From a virus, in UHGV virus genome UHGV-0090440: DNA of 64,000 nt. One strand, 5' to 3'. Positions 9,056 to 64,000 of this stretch are shown here, one piece after another. Position numbers and translations under genes: made by a program. The notes below the pieces were generated by a model. It had not been told where the DNA came from. It searched no databases and was given only the letters and a program-made list of their open reading frames with translations. Position 1 is the first letter of the stretch. Every line of letters starts with the position of its first letter.

Positions 9056-9131
9056 TGGTGGCCCCTACCGGACTTGAACCGGTGACCGTGCGATTATGAG
9101 TCGCCAGCTCTAACCACTGAGCTAAAGGGCC
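9056..9131 (-). tRNA. tRNA-Ile (anticodon CAU, ileX-like)
   Basis: 76-nt cloverleaf by hand folding: acceptor GGCCCTT/AGGGGCC, D-arm GCTCAGTGGTTAGAGC, anticodon loop CTCATAA, T-loop TTCAAGT, encoded CCA. Near-identical to E. coli ileX as recalled; CAT could also read Met. Confidence 0.85.
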
Positions 9132-9285
9132 AGATTACTGTTAATTCCGCTTACGCTTTTTGCCAGGACCGCGTAAGGCTTTTGCTGCTTGCTCGACCCC
9201 ATATACAACCACCAGCAGAAATAAAAATGTCCACCAAGGGTTCTTATCGGCAAACGTCCAAAATTCCATCATGTTCTCTATTTGG

Positions 9286-10113
9286 TTATTTCACCGGAAC
9301 AAACGGAACAGCGGTATTACTGGTCATATACTGCGGTAGCGTTCCGTTCCATTTGTTGATCGCTTCCAACTCCATAACGCCGGGGTTCTGGCGCAGAGCC
9401 TCACCGCGTAAACGAATGGCATCAGCTTCAGCCTGGGCTTTTGTGCGAATGGCATCGGCCTGTCCGGCAGCTTCTGCGCGCAGCATGTTGGCTTCTGCTT
9501 CGCGTTGCTTGACTTCCTGCTCGCGTTGCAGAGTTTTCTGGTTCGCCGTGACTTTGGCATTAATGCTGTCGATAACGGTTGGCGGGTACTCCGGCTTGCC
9601 CACATATGAGAGGCTCATTACCTGAATACCGATGGGCGTCATTTCTTCCTGGATGTCTTTAAGAGCTGCATCCAGTAGTTCAGACTTGCCACCGTCGATA
9701 AATTTGTCGGTGGTCATTTTGCTGGCCAGTCGGTTAAGTGCGTCGGCAATCTTCTGGCGCAGATCGGTGTCGGTAATGTCATCCACGCCTTTGCGGTAGG
9801 TCTGAAATACAGTTGTGACTTTTGCCGGATCAACCTTGTAAGCTACACCAATGTGGTAACCAATTGTTGTCCCGTCGCTCATTTGGAAGCTGAACGGATC
9901 ATCATAGGTCTTCATTTGCTTAAAGGTCGGGAAGATATAAACTTCTGTGTTCCAGCCTGTCCAGTAGCGACCAACGCCAACTACTTCGCCGACACCTTTA
10001 TCATCCCCCAGCTTATTTACTTTGATCCCTACATTGCCTGGTTCTACCCGGTCGCATCCGGTCAGACATAAAGAACCAAAAATAATCGCTGCACTAATCA
10101 ACGTTTTTTTCAT
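9286..10113 (-). CDS. SPFH/band-7 domain lipoprotein
   Basis: 275 aa; signal peptide with lipobox LTGC; SPFH-type core and Ala/Glu-rich coiled-coil tail (EAEANMLRAEAAGQADAIRTKAQAEADAIR). Confidence 0.8.
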   Translation of the reverse strand: MKKTLISAAIIFGSLCLTGCDRVEPGNVGIKVNKLGDDKGVGEVVGVGRYWTGWNTEVYIFPTFKQMKTYDDPFSFQMSDGTTIGYHIGVAYKVDPAKVTTVFQTYRKGVDDITDTDLRQKIADALNRLASKMTTDKFIDGGKSELLDAALKDIQEEMTPIGIQVMSLSYVGKPEYPPTVIDSINAKVTANQKTLQREQEVKQREAEANMLRAEAAGQADAIRTKAQAEADAIRLRGEALRQNPGVMELEAINKWNGTLPQYMTSNTAVPFVPVK

Positions 10114-10330
10114 TAATCAATTTCCTGGTTTTTTCACGAAAAAAGACTACTGCAAAAGCCGGGTAAATGAGCGCGAGAAGGACTCCCAACAATACAAGTA
10201 TTGTGCTGTCAGATGAGATCATATTTGGCAAAAGCCAAACATACAGAACCAGTGACACAATCAAACAGAGGACGGCATAAATATATAGCCGCACCCATAG
10301 CGTTCGACATTTGTTCGGATTGTTCTGCAT
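10094..10330 (-). CDS. small membrane protein
   Basis: 78 aa with two hydrophobic helices; overlaps the start of the SPFH gene (operon partner). Confidence 0.5.
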   Translation of the reverse strand: MQNNPNKCRTLWVRLYIYAVLCLIVSLVLYVWLLPNMISSDSTILVLLGVLLALIYPAFAVVFFREKTRKLINEKNVD

Positions 10331-10370
10331 CCTCTCACTCCATTATTCAACGAATAAAAAAGCTGCGGTG

Positions 10371-10385
10371 CCTGGTGCCTCCAGG
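10371..10385. other. conserved hairpin CCTGG-TGCCT-CCAGG
   Basis: Second copy of the GGTGCCTCC-core hairpin; on the minus strand it is followed after 9 nt by a T6 run and lies about 45 nt upstream of the 78-aa gene start. Confidence 0.4.
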
Positions 10386-10477
10386 TGACGTTAACCAGTT
10401 AACAATTAACGCCGGGATGTTTGATTTAACCACTACGGAGGATTGTTTTAACTGTTCCGCGTGCGCTTAGCCGCATT

Positions 10478-10592
10478 CACCGCAATGGTAAGAGCACTTG
10501 GCTGGCTGGGCGGCGATGACGCCTGTACGCATTTGGTGATCCGGTTCTGCTTCCGGCATTCGCTTAATTAGCCAAATACTCTTAACGTTGCG
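10478..10592 (-). ncRNA. structured element, family member E2
   Basis: Arms CACCGCAATGGTAAGAGCACTTGG / CCAAATACTCTTAACGTTGCG enclosing internal hairpins; begins 2 nt after the 3' end of the Ser-like tRNA candidate. Confidence 0.3.
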
Positions 10593-10593
10593 C

Positions 10594-10680
10594 TGGCGGA
10601 GAGTAATGGAATCGAACCATCATCGCTTGCGCAATGGGACGGTTTTCAAGACCGCTTGAGCACCATGCTCCCTACTCTCC
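10594..10680 (-). tRNA. tRNA-Ser(UGA)-like, atypical; possible pseudogene
   Basis: 87 nt: perfect 7-bp acceptor GGAGAGT/ACTCTCC, T-arm GATGG-TTCGATT-CCATT, anticodon stem-loop GCGGT-CTTGAAA-ACCGT (anticodon TGA), 17-nt variable arm, encoded CCA; but A at position 8 and a short D-loop. Hand-folded only. Confidence 0.4.
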
Positions 10681-10802
10681 AATTGTTGTGGTTACCGGTA
10701 CTGATCTCCGGCTTAGCGACCCCGGCTACTGACTGCATTGCAGTGTGTGAACTCGCCTCGTGTGTCGCTGGGGCATTTCTTTCCGCGCATCAGTCTGCGC
10801 AT

Positions 10803-10882
10803 CAACCACAACGGAAAGAGCATTGGCTAACCAGGCTCGCCGACTCTTCACGATTATCGGCCCAATGCTCTTACCTGTTGTG
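10803..10882 (-). ncRNA. structured element, family member E3
   Basis: Arms CAACCACAACGGAAAGAGCATTGG / CCCAATGCTCTTACCTGTTGTG with a 34-nt insert. Confidence 0.3.
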
Positions 10883-11061
10883 CGCTCCGTTTCGTGGAGC
10901 TAACGGCGGGTGATCGGGCCGCACCAGACTGGACTTATTTCAGCGTTATGCTCATGCCAGAGAATCAAACTGTGATGGTCGGTGCTGAACTCCGACACAG
11001 GGTTGTAGCAAGCCCCGCAAAGCGCGCACTACTGTAGTTGCGGCACATCAGCCTGTGCATT

Positions 11062-11161
11062 CACCACAATGTTGAGAACACTGGTTGTCACGCTGCCTCG
11101 CGACCTTTATTCATAGATTGGGATATGACCCCGTTACGCCAATGTTCTCAACGTTGTAGTG
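11062..11161 (-). ncRNA. structured element, family member E4
   Basis: Arms CACCACAATGTTGAGAACACTGG / CCAATGTTCTCAACGTTGTAGTG; insert contains an AGGCAG-loop hairpin. Confidence 0.3.
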
Positions 11162-11297
11162 CCGGTTACGGTTCCGGCCAGGCTTCTTCCTCAACGGGGT
11201 GTTCTCCATACGGACTACCGTTTATTGGTCGTTCCTGCGGTTTATGTTGTGAAGCCAGATGCTTATCTTCTGGTTGCTTCAAAGAGCTGCACTTCAT

Positions 11298-11384
11298 CAC
11301 AACGGTAAGGGTACTTCGTAGGGATTCGAACCCTCTGCCAAGCTCGGCGATCTCCGACGTCGCAAAATACCCTTACCTGTTGTG
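11298..11384 (-). ncRNA. tRNA-like element E5 (no anticodon arm)
   Basis: 16-bp stem CACAACGGTAAGGGTA/TACCCTTACCTGTTGTG enclosing a D-arm-like hairpin (GCGA-CGTCGGAGA-TCGC) and a T-arm-like hairpin (GAGGG-TTCGAAT-CCCTA); starts 2 nt after the tRNA-Thr 3' end. Confidence 0.35.
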
Positions 11385-11385
11385 T

Positions 11386-11461
11386 TGGTGCCGGTTAACG
11401 GACTCGAACCGCTGACATCCTGCTTACAAGGCAGGCGCTCTACCAACTGAGCTAAACCGGC
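11386..11461 (-). tRNA. tRNA-Thr (anticodon UGU)
   Basis: 76 nt: acceptor GCCGGTT/AACCGGC, D-arm GCTCAGTTGGTAGAGC, anticodon loop CTTGTAA, T-loop TTCGAGT, encoded CCA. Confidence 0.9.
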
Positions 11462-11465
11462 AATT

Positions 11466-11552
11466 TGGTGGGGAGTGATGGAGTCGAACCACCCGAGTCG
11501 CAATGACAGTAGATTTACAGTCTACCCCGCTGCCCCTACGGACTAACTCCCC
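11466..11552 (-). tRNA. tRNA-Tyr (anticodon GUA), type II
   Basis: 87 nt: acceptor GGGGAGT/ACTCCCC, anticodon stem-loop GTAGA-CTGTAAA-TCTAC, long variable arm, T-loop TTCGACT, encoded CCA. Confidence 0.8.
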
Positions 11553-11557
11553 TAAAT

Positions 11558-11632
11558 TGGCGATGGTGGGTGGATTCGAACCACCGACCAGTTGGTTAAC
11601 AGCCAACTGCTCTACCGCTGAGCTACACCATC
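11558..11632 (-). tRNA. tRNA-Asn (anticodon GUU)
   Basis: 75 nt: acceptor GATGGTG/CACCATC, D-arm GCTCAGCGGTAGAGC, anticodon loop CTGTTAA, T-loop TTCGAAT, encoded CCA. Confidence 0.9.
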
Positions 11633-50620: not shown

Positions 50621-50914
50621 GGGCAATTTTTACACCCCTCTCAAGGTGTAGAATTTGCCCTTAACGATCGGCAATTGAGGGCAATTTTTACATCTTAATT
50701 GCATGTATCTCGTTATTAGCAAGTTGTGTTTTTATATAACGTATTGATATGTAAGGATTATGTAAAAATCGCCCTCAACCAATATCGTGCGTATCGTGCA
50801 TTCTTATTGCGCTTTTTTATTATCATTCACTGTGTTAACTGATTGATATTATTGAAATATGTAAAGAATGCCTTCATTGCTGATGGATTGATGATGTAAA
50901 AAATGCCCTCAACA
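50621..50914. repeat. downstream iteron array (incA-like copy-control locus)
   Basis: At least six iteron copies in both orientations (50621, 50646, 50677, 50760, 50860, 50896), consensus ATGTAAAAATNGCCCTCA. Confidence 0.7.
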
Positions 50915-60974: not shown

Positions 60975-61135
60975 CTGTATTCTCACTTCATTCTCAAATA
61001 AATCTCACTGTCAGACCATAATTCATTGGGTGATTAAGGTATTCTCAAAATGAACTCAATAATCACTCCTTTTTATCTCTTTTGGTGTGGATTTTTGGGT
61101 GCTTCTCTTTTAAAATTGCATTTTGGTTCTCAAAT
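60975..61135. promoter_or_regulatory. parC-like centromere/promoter region
   Basis: Iterated (A/G)TTCTCA(A/C) elements (60978, 60990, 61040, 61125) plus degenerate copies, upstream of parM. Confidence 0.45.
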
Positions 61136-61159
61136 GTGTCTCAGAAGTGGAGCAAGAAG

Positions 61160-62116
61160 ATGCGCATTTTTATCGATGATGGTTCAACCAATATCAAAAT
61201 GCTGTGGGAGCACGACGGGGAAACTCGCACTCACATCAGCCCTAACAGCTTTAAGCGCGGATGGTCAGCAACATTTGGTGCTGGCAAGCCGTTTAACTAT
61301 GTCATTGACGACGAAAAGTATTCGTATGATTTGATCTCGCCAGATGTTCTGCCGACGAATAACGTGGAATGGCAATACAGCCCGCTTAACGTCCTGGCTG
61401 TTCACCATGCCCTGCTGACAAGTGGCATTGAGCCGCAGGAAGTAGAAATTGTGGTCACGCTGCCTCTGGCGGAGTTTTACGACGACGACGCGCAATACAA
61501 TCTCGATAACATCGAGCGCAAGAAAGCCAGTCTTATGCGCCCCGTCACGCTGAATAAAGGCAATGTGTTCACGATTAAGAAAGTTACGGTACGACCGGAG
61601 TCTATTCCGGCAGGAATTGGCCTGTGCGACAATCTGAACCCTGCCCATTCTGTTCTTATCGTCGATTTGGGTGGAACTACCCTTGATGTTTCAATGGTCG
61701 CCGGGCAAATGACGGCAGTTTCCCGTGTTTTTGGCGATTCGAATCTTGGTGTATCACTGGTCACCAGGGAAGTAAGGCAAGCACTTGCAAGGGCCAATAC
61801 CGAAACGTCAAATTACAATGTCGATCAGCTCATTATTAACCGCCACGATGAAGATTATCTGAACGACAATATCAATGACCCATCAGCGATTGATGATGTG
61901 AAAAAGGCCATTGCCGCAAGCATTGACCGTTTGTGTACCCGCGTTCTTGATGTGATTGGCGACTTTAAAGGATATACGCATGTCATGGTGATCGGTGGTG
62001 GCGCACCGCTGGTGGCAGATGCAATTCGCGAGCAAGTTAATATTCGTGATGACCGTTTCTTCGTGGCGGATGACCCGCAACTTGCTCTTGTTCATGGCCT
62101 GAAAGCAATCGGTTAA
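61160..62116 (+). CDS. parM: ParM/StbA actin-like partition ATPase
   Basis: ORF track start 61082; ATG 61160 (MRIFIDDGSTNIKM) preferred; near-colinear with R1 ParM as recalled (ISPNSFKR, VNVLAVHHALLTSG, LIVDLGGTTLDVS, YTHVMVIGGGA). Confidence 0.85.
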   Translation: MRIFIDDGSTNIKMLWEHDGETRTHISPNSFKRGWSATFGAGKPFNYVIDDEKYSYDLISPDVLPTNNVEWQYSPLNVLAVHHALLTSGIEPQEVEIVVTLPLAEFYDDDAQYNLDNIERKKASLMRPVTLNKGNVFTIKKVTVRPESIPAGIGLCDNLNPAHSVLIVDLGGTTLDVSMVAGQMTAVSRVFGDSNLGVSLVTREVRQALARANTETSNYNVDQLIINRHDEDYLNDNINDPSAIDDVKKAIAASIDRLCTRVLDVIGDFKGYTHVMVIGGGAPLVADAIREQVNIRDDRFFVADDPQLALVHGLKAIG

Positions 62117-62123
62117 CGAGGTA

Positions 62124-62468
62124 ATGTCCATGTCTCAGGAACGTAAGAAAGTGATGATTTATCTTCGCCCAGAGGCTTATGCCAATGAAAAGGCGGCGAG
62201 CGAGAAGATAAAAAAACATAGCGATATGGCAAGAACCGCATTGTTGGCAGGGCTTGCGCTGGGAGAAGTCGATAGCAGGCTTCCAGGATTACTGGCTTCC
62301 CTGCTGACCGAAGATAATAATCCGGAGCTGATCCGAAAAATGCTGGCATCCTTCCTGGAACTACCAGCTGCGGCTGAGGAGCGCCCTGCCTCCATTGAGC
62401 CAGCGAAGGAGCAAGTTGTTGCCAAAAGCGCGTCGGCGCGCAATCTGGCTGACTCTCTACCTGATTGA
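62124..62468 (+). CDS. parR: ParR-like centromere-binding protein
   Basis: 114 aa directly after parM; shares the ALLAGLAL...LLASLLTE pattern with R1 ParR as recalled. Confidence 0.6.
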   Translation: MSMSQERKKVMIYLRPEAYANEKAASEKIKKHSDMARTALLAGLALGEVDSRLPGLLASLLTEDNNPELIRKMLASFLELPAAAEERPASIEPAKEQVVAKSASARNLADSLPD

Positions 62469-62486
62469 CAGAAGATGTGCTGGTTT

Positions 62487-62512
62487 AAGGCTGCAAATTG
62501 CAGCCTTTTTTA
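62487..62512 (+). terminator. intrinsic terminator
   Basis: AAGGCTGCA-AAT-TGCAGCCTT followed by TTTTTAT, 20 bp after the parR stop. Confidence 0.6.
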
Positions 62513-62520
62513 TGCCTTAA

Positions 62521-62592
62521 TGGTGCCTAATTGGTGTTAATCTGGCACCAGTTAGGTGCTGTTATGGTGCAGTTTTGTATCTGGTTCCAATT
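62521..62592. promoter_or_regulatory. candidate operator/centromere for the ParA system
   Basis: Repeated TGGTGC/GCACCA elements (62521, 62544, 62555, 62565) and TGGTTCCAATT (62582-62592). Confidence 0.35.
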
Positions 62593-62755
62593 TGGGGCTG
62601 ATTTCGTGTTAAACAGGATGCAATATAAGGTGTATTTGGTCTGATTGATGTTATACTTTGCCAAACATTCATGACTCCATTATAGAGCCTGTCCCGCATC
62701 AAAAAGGCTCTTATCTGGAACCGTTTTGATACCAAAATCACACCGAGGAACGGAT

Positions 62756-63397
62756 ATGATTATATTGGTAGCCAGCCAAAAAGGTGGCTGTGGCAAATCA
62801 ACCACCAGCGTAAATATTTGTGCGGAGCTTGCCCGCGCAAATAAGGACGTAGTTCTACTTGATGCAGATAAGCAAGGAACATCTGCCCGTTGGGCATCGG
62901 ACCGTAATGCGGCAGAGGTTTCTCCAGTAATTCATTGCGTCCAGAAGTTTGGGAATATTCGTGAAACACTTCTTGATCTGGACAAGCGTTATGAATTTGT
63001 GGTTGTTGATACCGCTGGTCGTGATAGCAAAGAAATGCGCACCGGTATTACTGCGGCGGATGTTTTGCTTGTTCCATTCAGGCCATCTCAGCCAGATTTA
63101 GACACTCTGGCGCATTTTGTTGAAGTCTTTGAAGAGGCTTTGGATCTGATGCCTAATCCTAGCATTAAGGCGTGCGCAGTCTTAACAATGGCCCCATCCA
63201 ATCCGGTTGTGAATGAAGCCAATGAGGCCAAAGAGTACCTGGCTGAATATCCGCAACTGAAGTTGCTGAAAACCATCATTCGCGATCGCAAGGTTTACCG
63301 CGATTGTATGGCTGAAGGGAAGGGCGTTGTTGAGATGGACAACGGGAAAGCTAAAGGTGAAATCCAGATGTTGGTTAAGGAGTTATTAAGTGATTAA
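62756..63397 (+). CDS. parA: ParA/ParF-type partition ATPase
   Basis: ORF track start 62726; ATG 62756 preferred (GAGGAA RBS); deviant Walker A KGGCGKST; about 213 aa. Confidence 0.8.
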   Translation: MIILVASQKGGCGKSTTSVNICAELARANKDVVLLDADKQGTSARWASDRNAAEVSPVIHCVQKFGNIRETLLDLDKRYEFVVVDTAGRDSKEMRTGITAADVLLVPFRPSQPDLDTLAHFVEVFEEALDLMPNPSIKACAVLTMAPSNPVVNEANEAKEYLAEYPQLKLLKTIIRDRKVYRDCMAEGKGVVEMDNGKAKGEIQMLVKELLSD

Positions 63398-63677
63398 GCC
63401 TCGTAAATCGGTAAAAGCCCCCGAAGTAAAAGACCTCGATCTTGAACGCCGAATTGAGGCTTTTGCCAGCAAAGCTGATTTGGTGCCGGGTGAGCAACCA
63501 GAAGACAACAAAGTGCTCGATAAGGACGCCCCACGTGATTTTAAATCCATTCGTGTTGGCTTCAATGAATACGAGTACCAGGTACTTGATGCGTTAAGCA
63601 AAAAGCATAATCGCAGCAAATTGAATATGATCCGCCATGCTATCCTCATGTTAGCGGAGTCTGAGGAAGCAAAATAA
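63390..63677 (+). CDS. small ribbon-helix-helix partition adaptor (ParG-like)
   Basis: 95 aa, GTG start overlapping the parA stop with AAGGAG RBS; C-terminus fits an RHH fold (KLNMIRHAILMLAE). Confidence 0.55.
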   Translation: MIKPRKSVKAPEVKDLDLERRIEAFASKADLVPGEQPEDNKVLDKDAPRDFKSIRVGFNEYEYQVLDALSKKHNRSKLNMIRHAILMLAESEEAK

Positions 63678-63721
63678 AGTCTTTCAGGGTGGTTTTAGAA
63701 CTTAAAAAATCTTGAACCAAA

Positions 63722-63777
63722 GATGCACCAATACACTACTAATTTGGTGCACCTTTACATCCTTTTTGGTTCCAATT
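63722..63777. promoter_or_regulatory. candidate downstream centromere-like site
   Basis: Palindrome GCACCAAT...ATTTGGTGC (63725-63751) and a second copy of TGGTTCCAATT (63767-63777). Confidence 0.3.
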
Positions 63778-63946
63778 GTGTACCATTTTTCATTAATTTA
63801 CTTATGCGCAAAAGTGGGCTTCATGAAAAAGCTCATTATTGAAATAACGATAGAAAGCAATTTCTAATCAACTAGTGGTTGTCAGCCTATTCGGCTTATA
63901 AGATCATACGCTGTTATACGTTTTTTACGCTTTGAGGAATCCACAA

Positions 63947-64000
63947 TGAGTGAGGCAGAAGCCCGCCCGACTAACTTTATTCGTCAGATCATCGATGAAG
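63947..64000 (+). CDS. glnS: glutaminyl-tRNA synthetase-like ORF, first 18 codons only
   Basis: Translation MSEAEARPTNFIRQIIDE matches the E. coli GlnRS N-terminus as recalled; truncated by the window end. Confidence 0.55.

Follow-up and report, generated by a model that had tools for sequence, protein, structure and literature searches.

The glnS gene of D6-like phage-plasmids is already known. It is annotated in Escherichia phage D6 as orf62 ('glutaminyl-tRNA synthetase, similar to E. coli GlnS'), and is discussed by Silva et al. 2019 (PMC6799933), who describe it as a moron present in D6-like genomes and state that the synthetase must act on host tRNA-Gln; our literature searches found no functional study of the D6-like gene. 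Another aminoacyl-tRNA synthetase gene located on a large enterobacterial plasmid, in addition to a chromosomal copy, is cysS of pBT1 (Salmonella Typhimurium D23580; PMC6333337, PMC6785131). CysRS-pBT1 is reported to differ from its chromosomal counterpart as an enzyme, with lower activity and stability, and to have become the essential copy (PMC6333337, PMC6785131).

Large lytic phages and giant viruses likewise encode aminoacyl-tRNA synthetases in their genomes. These viral enzymes are typically divergent and viral-lineage-specific, and plasmid-borne synthetase genes elsewhere are often resistance determinants.

The locus described here lies at the end of a 64,000-nucleotide stretch of the virus genome UHGV-0090440, the whole of which is hereafter denoted the window. 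In comparison with D6 and the D6-like prophages (pYU39_89; annotation of Gilcrease and Casjens 2018) it shows no difference of substance: the same gene is found in the same place, at 96–99.9% nucleotide identity, and the window adds one more allele. In contrast to pBT1 cysS, the D6-like gene encodes a glutaminyl-tRNA synthetase (GlnRS) near-identical to that of the host, there is no evident take-over of the chromosomal function, and the carrier is a phage-plasmid. Unlike the synthetases of large lytic phages and giant viruses, it is a host allele, with ~3% nucleotide divergence, which appears to be still recombining with the alleles of its hosts. We consider it very likely that the locus is a host-derived Escherichia glnS cassette carried by a D6-like phage-plasmid, i.e. 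a dispensable moron giving a second dose of GlnRS.

A glnS gene begins at the window end

The window breaks off within a glnS reading frame. Its last 55 bases (63946–64000) read ATG AGT GAG GCA GAA GCC CGC CCG ACT AAC TTT ATT CGT CAG ATC ATC GAT GAA G, of which 63946–63999 form 18 codons (translation MSEAEARPTNFIRQIIDE). All 18 residues are identical to the N-terminus of E. coli K-12 GlnRS, in agreement with a preliminary description of this DNA, and all 18 are likewise identical to the crystallised E. coli enzyme (1o0b). The same description had implied a start codon at 63947, about 270 bp beyond the preceding gene; the spacing holds, with 268 bp separating the stop codon of the 95-aa gene (63675–63677) from the glnS ATG, but the ATG itself is at 63946. 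When the upstream region is included, 63858–64000 matches the K-12 glnS promoter and 5′ end with 130 identities over 143 positions (BLAST, E = 5e-53), and this 143-bp segment is matched in 5414 of the 5426 complete E. coli genomes; the GlnRS match is therefore real and far beyond chance. The features of the locus, together with the tRNA genes of the window, are listed in Table 1.

Table 1. Features of the glnS locus and the tRNA island, in window coordinates
Feature	Position	Strand	Basis
tRNA island, five genes: CAT (Met, or Ile2), Ser-TGA, Thr-TGT, Tyr-GTA, Asn-GTT	9056-11632		ARAGORN
ParA-like ATPase, partner of the 95-aa protein	62726-63397		Profile matches AAA_31, MipZ, CbiA, ParA
95-aa gene, closing the second partition module and adjoining the glnS cassette on its left	63390..63677	+	ORF list
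Plasmid-specific AT-rich spacer, 33% GC	63678..63857	.	BLAST to K-12 and alignment with five chromosomal upstream regions
Four TTGGTKC heptamers, symmetrical: two on the minus strand, then two on the plus	63714..63772	.	Motif search
Hairpin, 13-nt arms (63719-63731, 63744-63756), 12-nt loop, then UUUACAUCCUUUUU	63719..63756	+	Repeat search, folding
Segment with homology to the Escherichia chromosome: 88 bp upstream of glnS plus first 18 codons	63858..64000	+	BLAST to K-12
glnS promoter, host-derived: -35 TTGTCA, 17-nt spacer, -10 GATCAT	63879..63907	+	Promoter scan
Shine-Dalgarno GAGGAA, 6 nt before the ATG	63934..63939	+	Read from the sequence
glnS, first 18 codons plus one base	63946..64000	+	Translation MSEAEARPTNFIRQIIDE; cut by the window end

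The window is part of a D6-like phage-plasmid

Most of the window (56.4 of 64 kb) is colinear with the plasmid pEC213_2 (NZ_CP061103.1) at 89–99.6% identity, the last 13.1 kb being 99.1% identical. Over 63300–64000 (701 bp) the window is closest to pEC213_2 and to the plasmid carried by strain 98228, each 99.9% identical to it; 61000–64000 is 96% identical to phage D6. The final 3 kb match 134 plasmid records, mostly of ~90 kb and non-mobilizable, from Escherichia, Salmonella and Shigella. The gene content of pEC213_2 and D6 comprises capsid, sheath, baseplate, terminase, repressor, lytic-replication, RepB and ParM genes, as well as phd-doc and higBA. As the window is colinear with these two elements, both of which encode phage, replication and partition genes, its sequence identifies it as part of a D6-like (P1-related) phage-plasmid. 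The D6-like gene order (ParM/StbA module, ParA-like gene, 95-aa gene, glnS and convergent dmt) is also that of the window, which follows it as far as its end within glnS.

Several further observations concern the remainder of the element. An IS200/IS605 tnpA plus TnpB (InsQ) unit of ~1.75 kb is present in pEC213_2 (79.8–81.5 kb of the record) and absent at window position 50895/50896. The segment 33612–40115 is mostly without a megablast match in pEC213_2, or has a weak one (79%); its position corresponds to the tail-fibre and invertible-segment region, which is reported to be the most divergent part of D6-like genomes. The annotation of pEC213_2 includes a Thoeris anti-defence Tad2 gene.

None of the five tRNA genes found by ARAGORN in the window is a tRNA-Gln gene. 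The preliminary description had remarked on a synthetase standing beside a phage tRNA island; the island is in fact ~52 kb away from glnS. It is variable between near-identical elements, since pEC213_2 is annotated with an Arg tRNA where the window has Asn, and since 9147–10363 and 10711–10970 of the window have no match in pEC213_2.

Relatives encode a complete, host-like enzyme

In pEC213_2, glnS is a complete gene of 1662 nt (553 codons), and the strain 98228 plasmid likewise has it complete. The window itself extends only to codon 18; judging from these relatives, which are 99–99.9% identical, the gene is expected to be complete in the window's own molecule. The region 3′ of glnS in pEC213_2 contains a convergent DNA adenine methylase gene (dmt), followed by rdgC and baseplate or tail genes, and phage D6 has the same arrangement, its glnS also running to 553 codons.

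The predicted product has the sequence attributes of a GlnRS. Against the glnS equivalog model (NCBIfam TIGR00440; cutoff 425.8) the pEC213_2 protein reaches 1067 bits; it contains the Pfam domains PF00749, PF03950 and PF20974, corresponding to the catalytic domain and both anticodon-binding domains, and aligns end to end with 1o0b. The class I motifs HIGH (residue 41) and VMSKR (residue 268; K-12 positions) are intact in the relatives. Each plasmid allele differs from K-12 by 3–6 conservative substitutions, leaving the protein 99% identical. The only widely recurring changes are I112V, present in four of the five plasmid alleles, and V552L with loss of E554, also in four of the five, the latter pair being derived from the capture junction at the C-terminus; no substitution common to all five alleles was found.

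This near-identity bears on the possibility that the cassette is a protective spare copy, with extra GlnRS guarding the cell against an agent directed at GlnRS or at tRNA-Gln charging, for instance a toxin, tRNase, abortive-infection system or inhibitor, in the manner of mupA/ileS2. The tRNA genes on the element and the Tad2 gene of pEC213_2 would indirectly fit a counter-defence repertoire of this kind. However, a mupA/ileS2-type resistance paralogue is a divergent enzyme with an altered inhibitor site, which is not what the few conservative substitutions of the plasmid alleles amount to. Because the plasmid GlnRS shares 99% of its residues with that of the host, and its alleles have no universal substitution, it should be as sensitive as the host copy, such that only its dosage could be protective. 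We know of no natural GlnRS-specific inhibitor or toxin, and judge this explanation to be very unlikely.

Partition modules and the plasmid-specific spacer

Two partition modules adjoin one another in the window, at 61160–62468 and 62726–63677. The former comprises a ParM/StbA actin-like ATPase with a Plasmid_stab_B protein, and the latter a small ParA-like Walker ATPase with its 95-aa partner. The 95-aa gene is annotated as 'hypothetical protein' in both pEC213_2 and D6; its product gave no Pfam match, and the label of ribbon-helix-helix protein attached to it is only putative.

The spacer that follows contains small ORFs at 63712–63867 (51 aa) and 63723–63842 (39 aa), in a region which diverges freely in pEF-4, a related plasmid from E. 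fergusonii. The heptamer TTGGTKC has 34 matches in the 64 kb, four of which fall within 59 bp of the spacer, and similar TGGTGC-type repeats are found upstream of the ParA-like gene (62513–62617). The cluster is possibly a binding array for the partition proteins.

The inner pair of heptamers forms a hairpin with arms that are 92% complementary; the MFE fold and the centroid fold both contain it. Its arms have a different sequence in pEF-4, with pairing kept by three double changes plus one G.U pair. Based on the local stem, the U-rich tail and these compensatory changes in a single divergent relative, the hairpin is probably the terminator of the par operon, and would insulate glnS from read-through; alternatively, it could be a palindromic binding site for the partition proteins. 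A consensus terminator scan of 63300–64000 flagged nothing, including the hairpin, and the stability of the 121-nt fold does not significantly exceed that of shuffled sequence (z = −1.5). An Rfam scan of 63300–64000 (E ≤ 1) found no RNA family, and thus no known leader or riboswitch.

A Dam-sensitive host promoter has been retained

Both promoter hexamers, and the Dam site (GATC, 63902–63905) which lies within the −10 element, are identical in the K-12, O157, B2 and E. ruysiae chromosomes and in the five plasmid alleles, and the Shine-Dalgarno sequence is identical across all chromosomal and plasmid alleles examined. All of the plasmid alleles also have in common three changes in the promoter spacer (CCTATTCGGC), GTG in place of ACA just upstream of the −35 element, and an A-for-G change before the ATG (CACAATG). 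The three plasmid-specific spacer substitutions could alter promoter strength.

Expression of the host glnS is de-repressed by deletion of dam, or by mutation of the Dam sites in its promoter (Plumbridge & Soll 1987, as relayed in PMC11741368), and is up about two-fold in dam mutants (PMC11741368). By analogy, the plasmid glnS promoter may be Dam-repressed like that of the host. Compared with the chromosomal gene (b0680), the plasmid copy is thus alike in its promoter hexamers, GATC, Shine-Dalgarno sequence, GlnRS domains and motifs, and at 99% of its protein sequence; the differences lie in the three promoter-spacer changes and, as set out below, in its flanks, its C-terminus and its terminator.

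Boundaries of the captured block

Comparison of pEC213_2 and D6 with K-12 by BLAST gives a single block of 1746 bp at 96.6–96.8% identity, which opens 87–88 bp upstream of the glnS ATG and ends ~7 nt short of the stop codon of the chromosomal gene. Upstream of 63858, no similarity was found to the chromosomal glnS contexts of K-12, O157, SX4, B2 strains, E. ruysiae or Salmonella; a comparison of 63678–63946 with the host glnS upstream region, which the preliminary description had recommended, accordingly finds chromosomal homology only from 63858 onward. In the K-12, O157 and SX4 chromosomes the gene upstream of glnS is nagE. The chromosomal glnS contexts part from one another at about −85, which is also where the plasmid homology begins. 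Since the chromosomes themselves diverge at about the same point, the captured unit would correspond to the conserved glnS promoter unit. B2-type E. coli chromosomes have a DeoR/GlpR-family regulator gene, rather than nagE, upstream of glnS.

At the right boundary, the chromosomal sequence ...AAA GTA GGC GAG TAA becomes ...AAG TTA GGT TAA TAG in the plasmids. The last two or three codons are thereby replaced, so that the plasmid protein ends in KLG* as opposed to the chromosomal KVGE*, and the gene is followed by a different, GC-rich hairpin terminator which is common to glnS and the convergent dmt gene. No host flanking gene (nagE, chiP), IS element or att-like repeat was found beside the block. 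Relatives without glnS did not yield a clean insertion site, as their spacer and dmt flank are only 71–83% identical and unalignable across the gap; against these divergent relatives no target duplication or microhomology was readable. As to GC content, which had also been proposed as a check, the spacer has 33% and the plasmid 47.5%, and glnS in the relatives has a GC content of 52.7% and a GC3 of 61.3%, like the chromosomal gene.

These boundaries inform on the nature of the window end, for which an integration or co-integrate junction and an assembly chimera had been considered initially alongside a captured host gene. With ~1.7 kb at ~97% identity to the chromosome, homologous recombination between phage-plasmid and chromosome via glnS is permitted, and the window ends before glnS does. 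However, the window promoter carries all of the plasmid-type changes described above, and 75 independent complete E. coli plasmids, as well as phage D6, have exactly this junction. The par locus is chromosomal in 0 of 5426 genomes; the DNA on the upstream side is that of a plasmid, with neither nagE nor chiP as a flank, and in relatives the phage dmt gene lies downstream of glnS, with chromosomal homology limited to the promoter and coding sequence. A junction or chimera therefore has, in our estimate, an almost negligible chance of being correct. Capture of a host gene is the option that is borne out, by the recurrence of the junction in plasmids and D6 and by the resumption of phage genes after full-length glnS.

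Origin of the alleles, selection and recombination

The plasmid glnS alleles are 96.4–97.2% identical to K-12, 94.6–95.4% identical to E. ruysiae and ~85% identical to Salmonella; other phage records in the collection match glnS at only 64–71% identity. E. coli chromosomal alleles are at most ~97.8% identical to the pEC213_2 allele; records of any kind at or above 99% number only 11. The copy on the Salmonella plasmid pYU39_89 is of the Escherichia type and is 99.9% identical to the D6 allele, which argues that glnS travels with the element. On these identities the donor lineage appears to have been an Escherichia, closest to E. coli; a scan of genome contigs had one further Escherichia species among the matches listed.

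By neighbour joining, four of the plasmid alleles group as a clade adjacent to those of the E. coli chromosomes, with pEF-4 placed deeper. The pEF-4 gene has 554 codons and its own C-terminus (KVEG*), and is ~95% identical to the other plasmid alleles. This allele might stem from an earlier divergence, from a second capture, or from conversion by the chromosome of a non-E. coli Escherichia. A single capture of glnS is likely, although pEF-4 falls outside the main plasmid clade.

The dN/dS ratio is 0.01–0.05 in every comparison, whether of plasmid with plasmid or of plasmid with chromosomal alleles, and consequently the plasmid glnS seems to have been kept as a functional enzyme. Plasmid-specific differences are concentrated in codons about 30–150. 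Elsewhere the alleles contain mosaic blocks: positions 1201–1350 of the D6 gene are the same as in K-12 and O157, and positions 601–750 of pEC213_2 are the same as in SX4. There are 20 sites that are polymorphic in both the plasmid and chromosomal sets, and compatibility between adjacent informative sites is higher than in any of 2000 permutations (neighbour-incompatibility test, 0/2000), a signal which comes from ten sequences only and is partly due to chromosome-to-chromosome exchange. The pattern suggests gene conversion between plasmid and chromosomal glnS.

Distribution, and the chromosomal copy in carriers

The junction of 95-aa gene, spacer and glnS recurs in 75 records of complete E. 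coli plasmids, in phage D6 and in ~105 PLSDB plasmids; several PLSDB records of 4.8–5.4 Mb are evidently chromosomes, and raw counts of plasmid glnS from that source are slightly inflated. The par locus which adjoins glnS was found in 101 of the 5426 E. coli genomes, always on a plasmid and never on the chromosome. About 20 of these 101 E. coli plasmids, all of which have the ParA-like/95-aa locus, are without glnS. Examples are pCUVET19-1396.3, the unnamed plasmid of 2021CK-00607 and pCUVET20-PYO4.3, in which the 95-aa gene is followed by ~135 bp, consisting of an iteron-like spacer plus a different terminator, and then by dmt. As approximately one fifth of the plasmids with the par locus do without it, glnS would be common but dispensable cargo at the module boundary. 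These plasmids contradict the published statement that glnS is present in all D6-like genomes.

Across the 5426 complete E. coli genomes, glnS occupies 5428 chromosomal and ~81 plasmid places, and all but one of the genomes (5425/5426) have a glnS place that covers at least 80% of the query. Judged from these collection-wide counts, the plasmid carriers almost certainly keep their chromosomal glnS.

The counts are relevant to a further explanation, namely addiction by take-over of an essential gene, whereby the plasmid glnS would become the main or only source of GlnRS and loss of the plasmid would be penalised. Silva et al. (PMC6799933) raise this idea for the D6-like glnS by analogy with pBT1 cysS, for which take-over has a precedent (PMC6785131), and the strong purifying selection on glnS and its position directly beside two partition modules speak in its favour. 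Against it, at most about 7 of the 5426 E. coli genomes could lack a chromosomal glnS, to be set against ~81 plasmid copies; ~20% of the related plasmids do without the gene; and phd-doc and higBA addiction modules are already present on these plasmids (pEC213_2, D6). On balance, we regard take-over as improbable.

A model for the cassette

We therefore return to the preferred reading, that of a dispensable host-derived cassette. In the proposed model, an ancestor of the D6-like elements copied a compact cassette from an Escherichia chromosome, comprising the glnS promoter, the ribosome-binding site and virtually the whole coding sequence, which came to lie between the second partition module on one side and the convergent DNA-methylase gene on the other. 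Its product is predicted to be a working GlnRS, essentially the host enzyme, and would charge host tRNA-Gln, since the element itself is without a tRNA-Gln. Transcription would start from the cassette's own sigma-70 promoter, downstream of the probable par-operon terminator, and Dam methylation at the GATC of the −10 element would reduce it, as in the host. Firing would be stronger on unmethylated or hemimethylated DNA, such as that present shortly after infection or while replication is rapid. In the lysogen, the gene would be a dispensable 'moron' providing GlnRS in a second dose, and the alleles would be held host-like partly via gene conversion with the chromosomal glnS.

A translational demand of the element itself was considered as a reason for carriage and rejected; its long ORFs have a Gln content of 4.1%, which is not elevated, and it has no tRNA-Gln.

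A more specific proposal is that the cassette is not a passive passenger, but a methylation-gated burst source of GlnRS, a standing recombination handle, or both. As a burst source, it could provide GlnRS from newly made element DNA, at infection or during lytic replication. As a handle, its 1.7 kb of near-identity could serve in allele exchange, and might allow the element to integrate into, or mobilise, the host glnS region. We hold this proposal to be unlikely; if true, either role would amount to a specific function for a host housekeeping gene on a temperate phage.

Implications

The finding has little weight as a discovery. It provides a clean negative, in that what looked like a host gene closing a plasmid locus is, in this case, very probably neither an assembly error nor an integration site. 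It also raises the question of why widespread enterobacterial phage-plasmids keep an aminoacyl-tRNA synthetase gene that is almost the same as the host's and is subject to strong purifying selection, a question made more testable by the retained Dam-sensitive promoter, by alleles that are mosaic with chromosomal ones, and by the existence of natural relatives without glnS.
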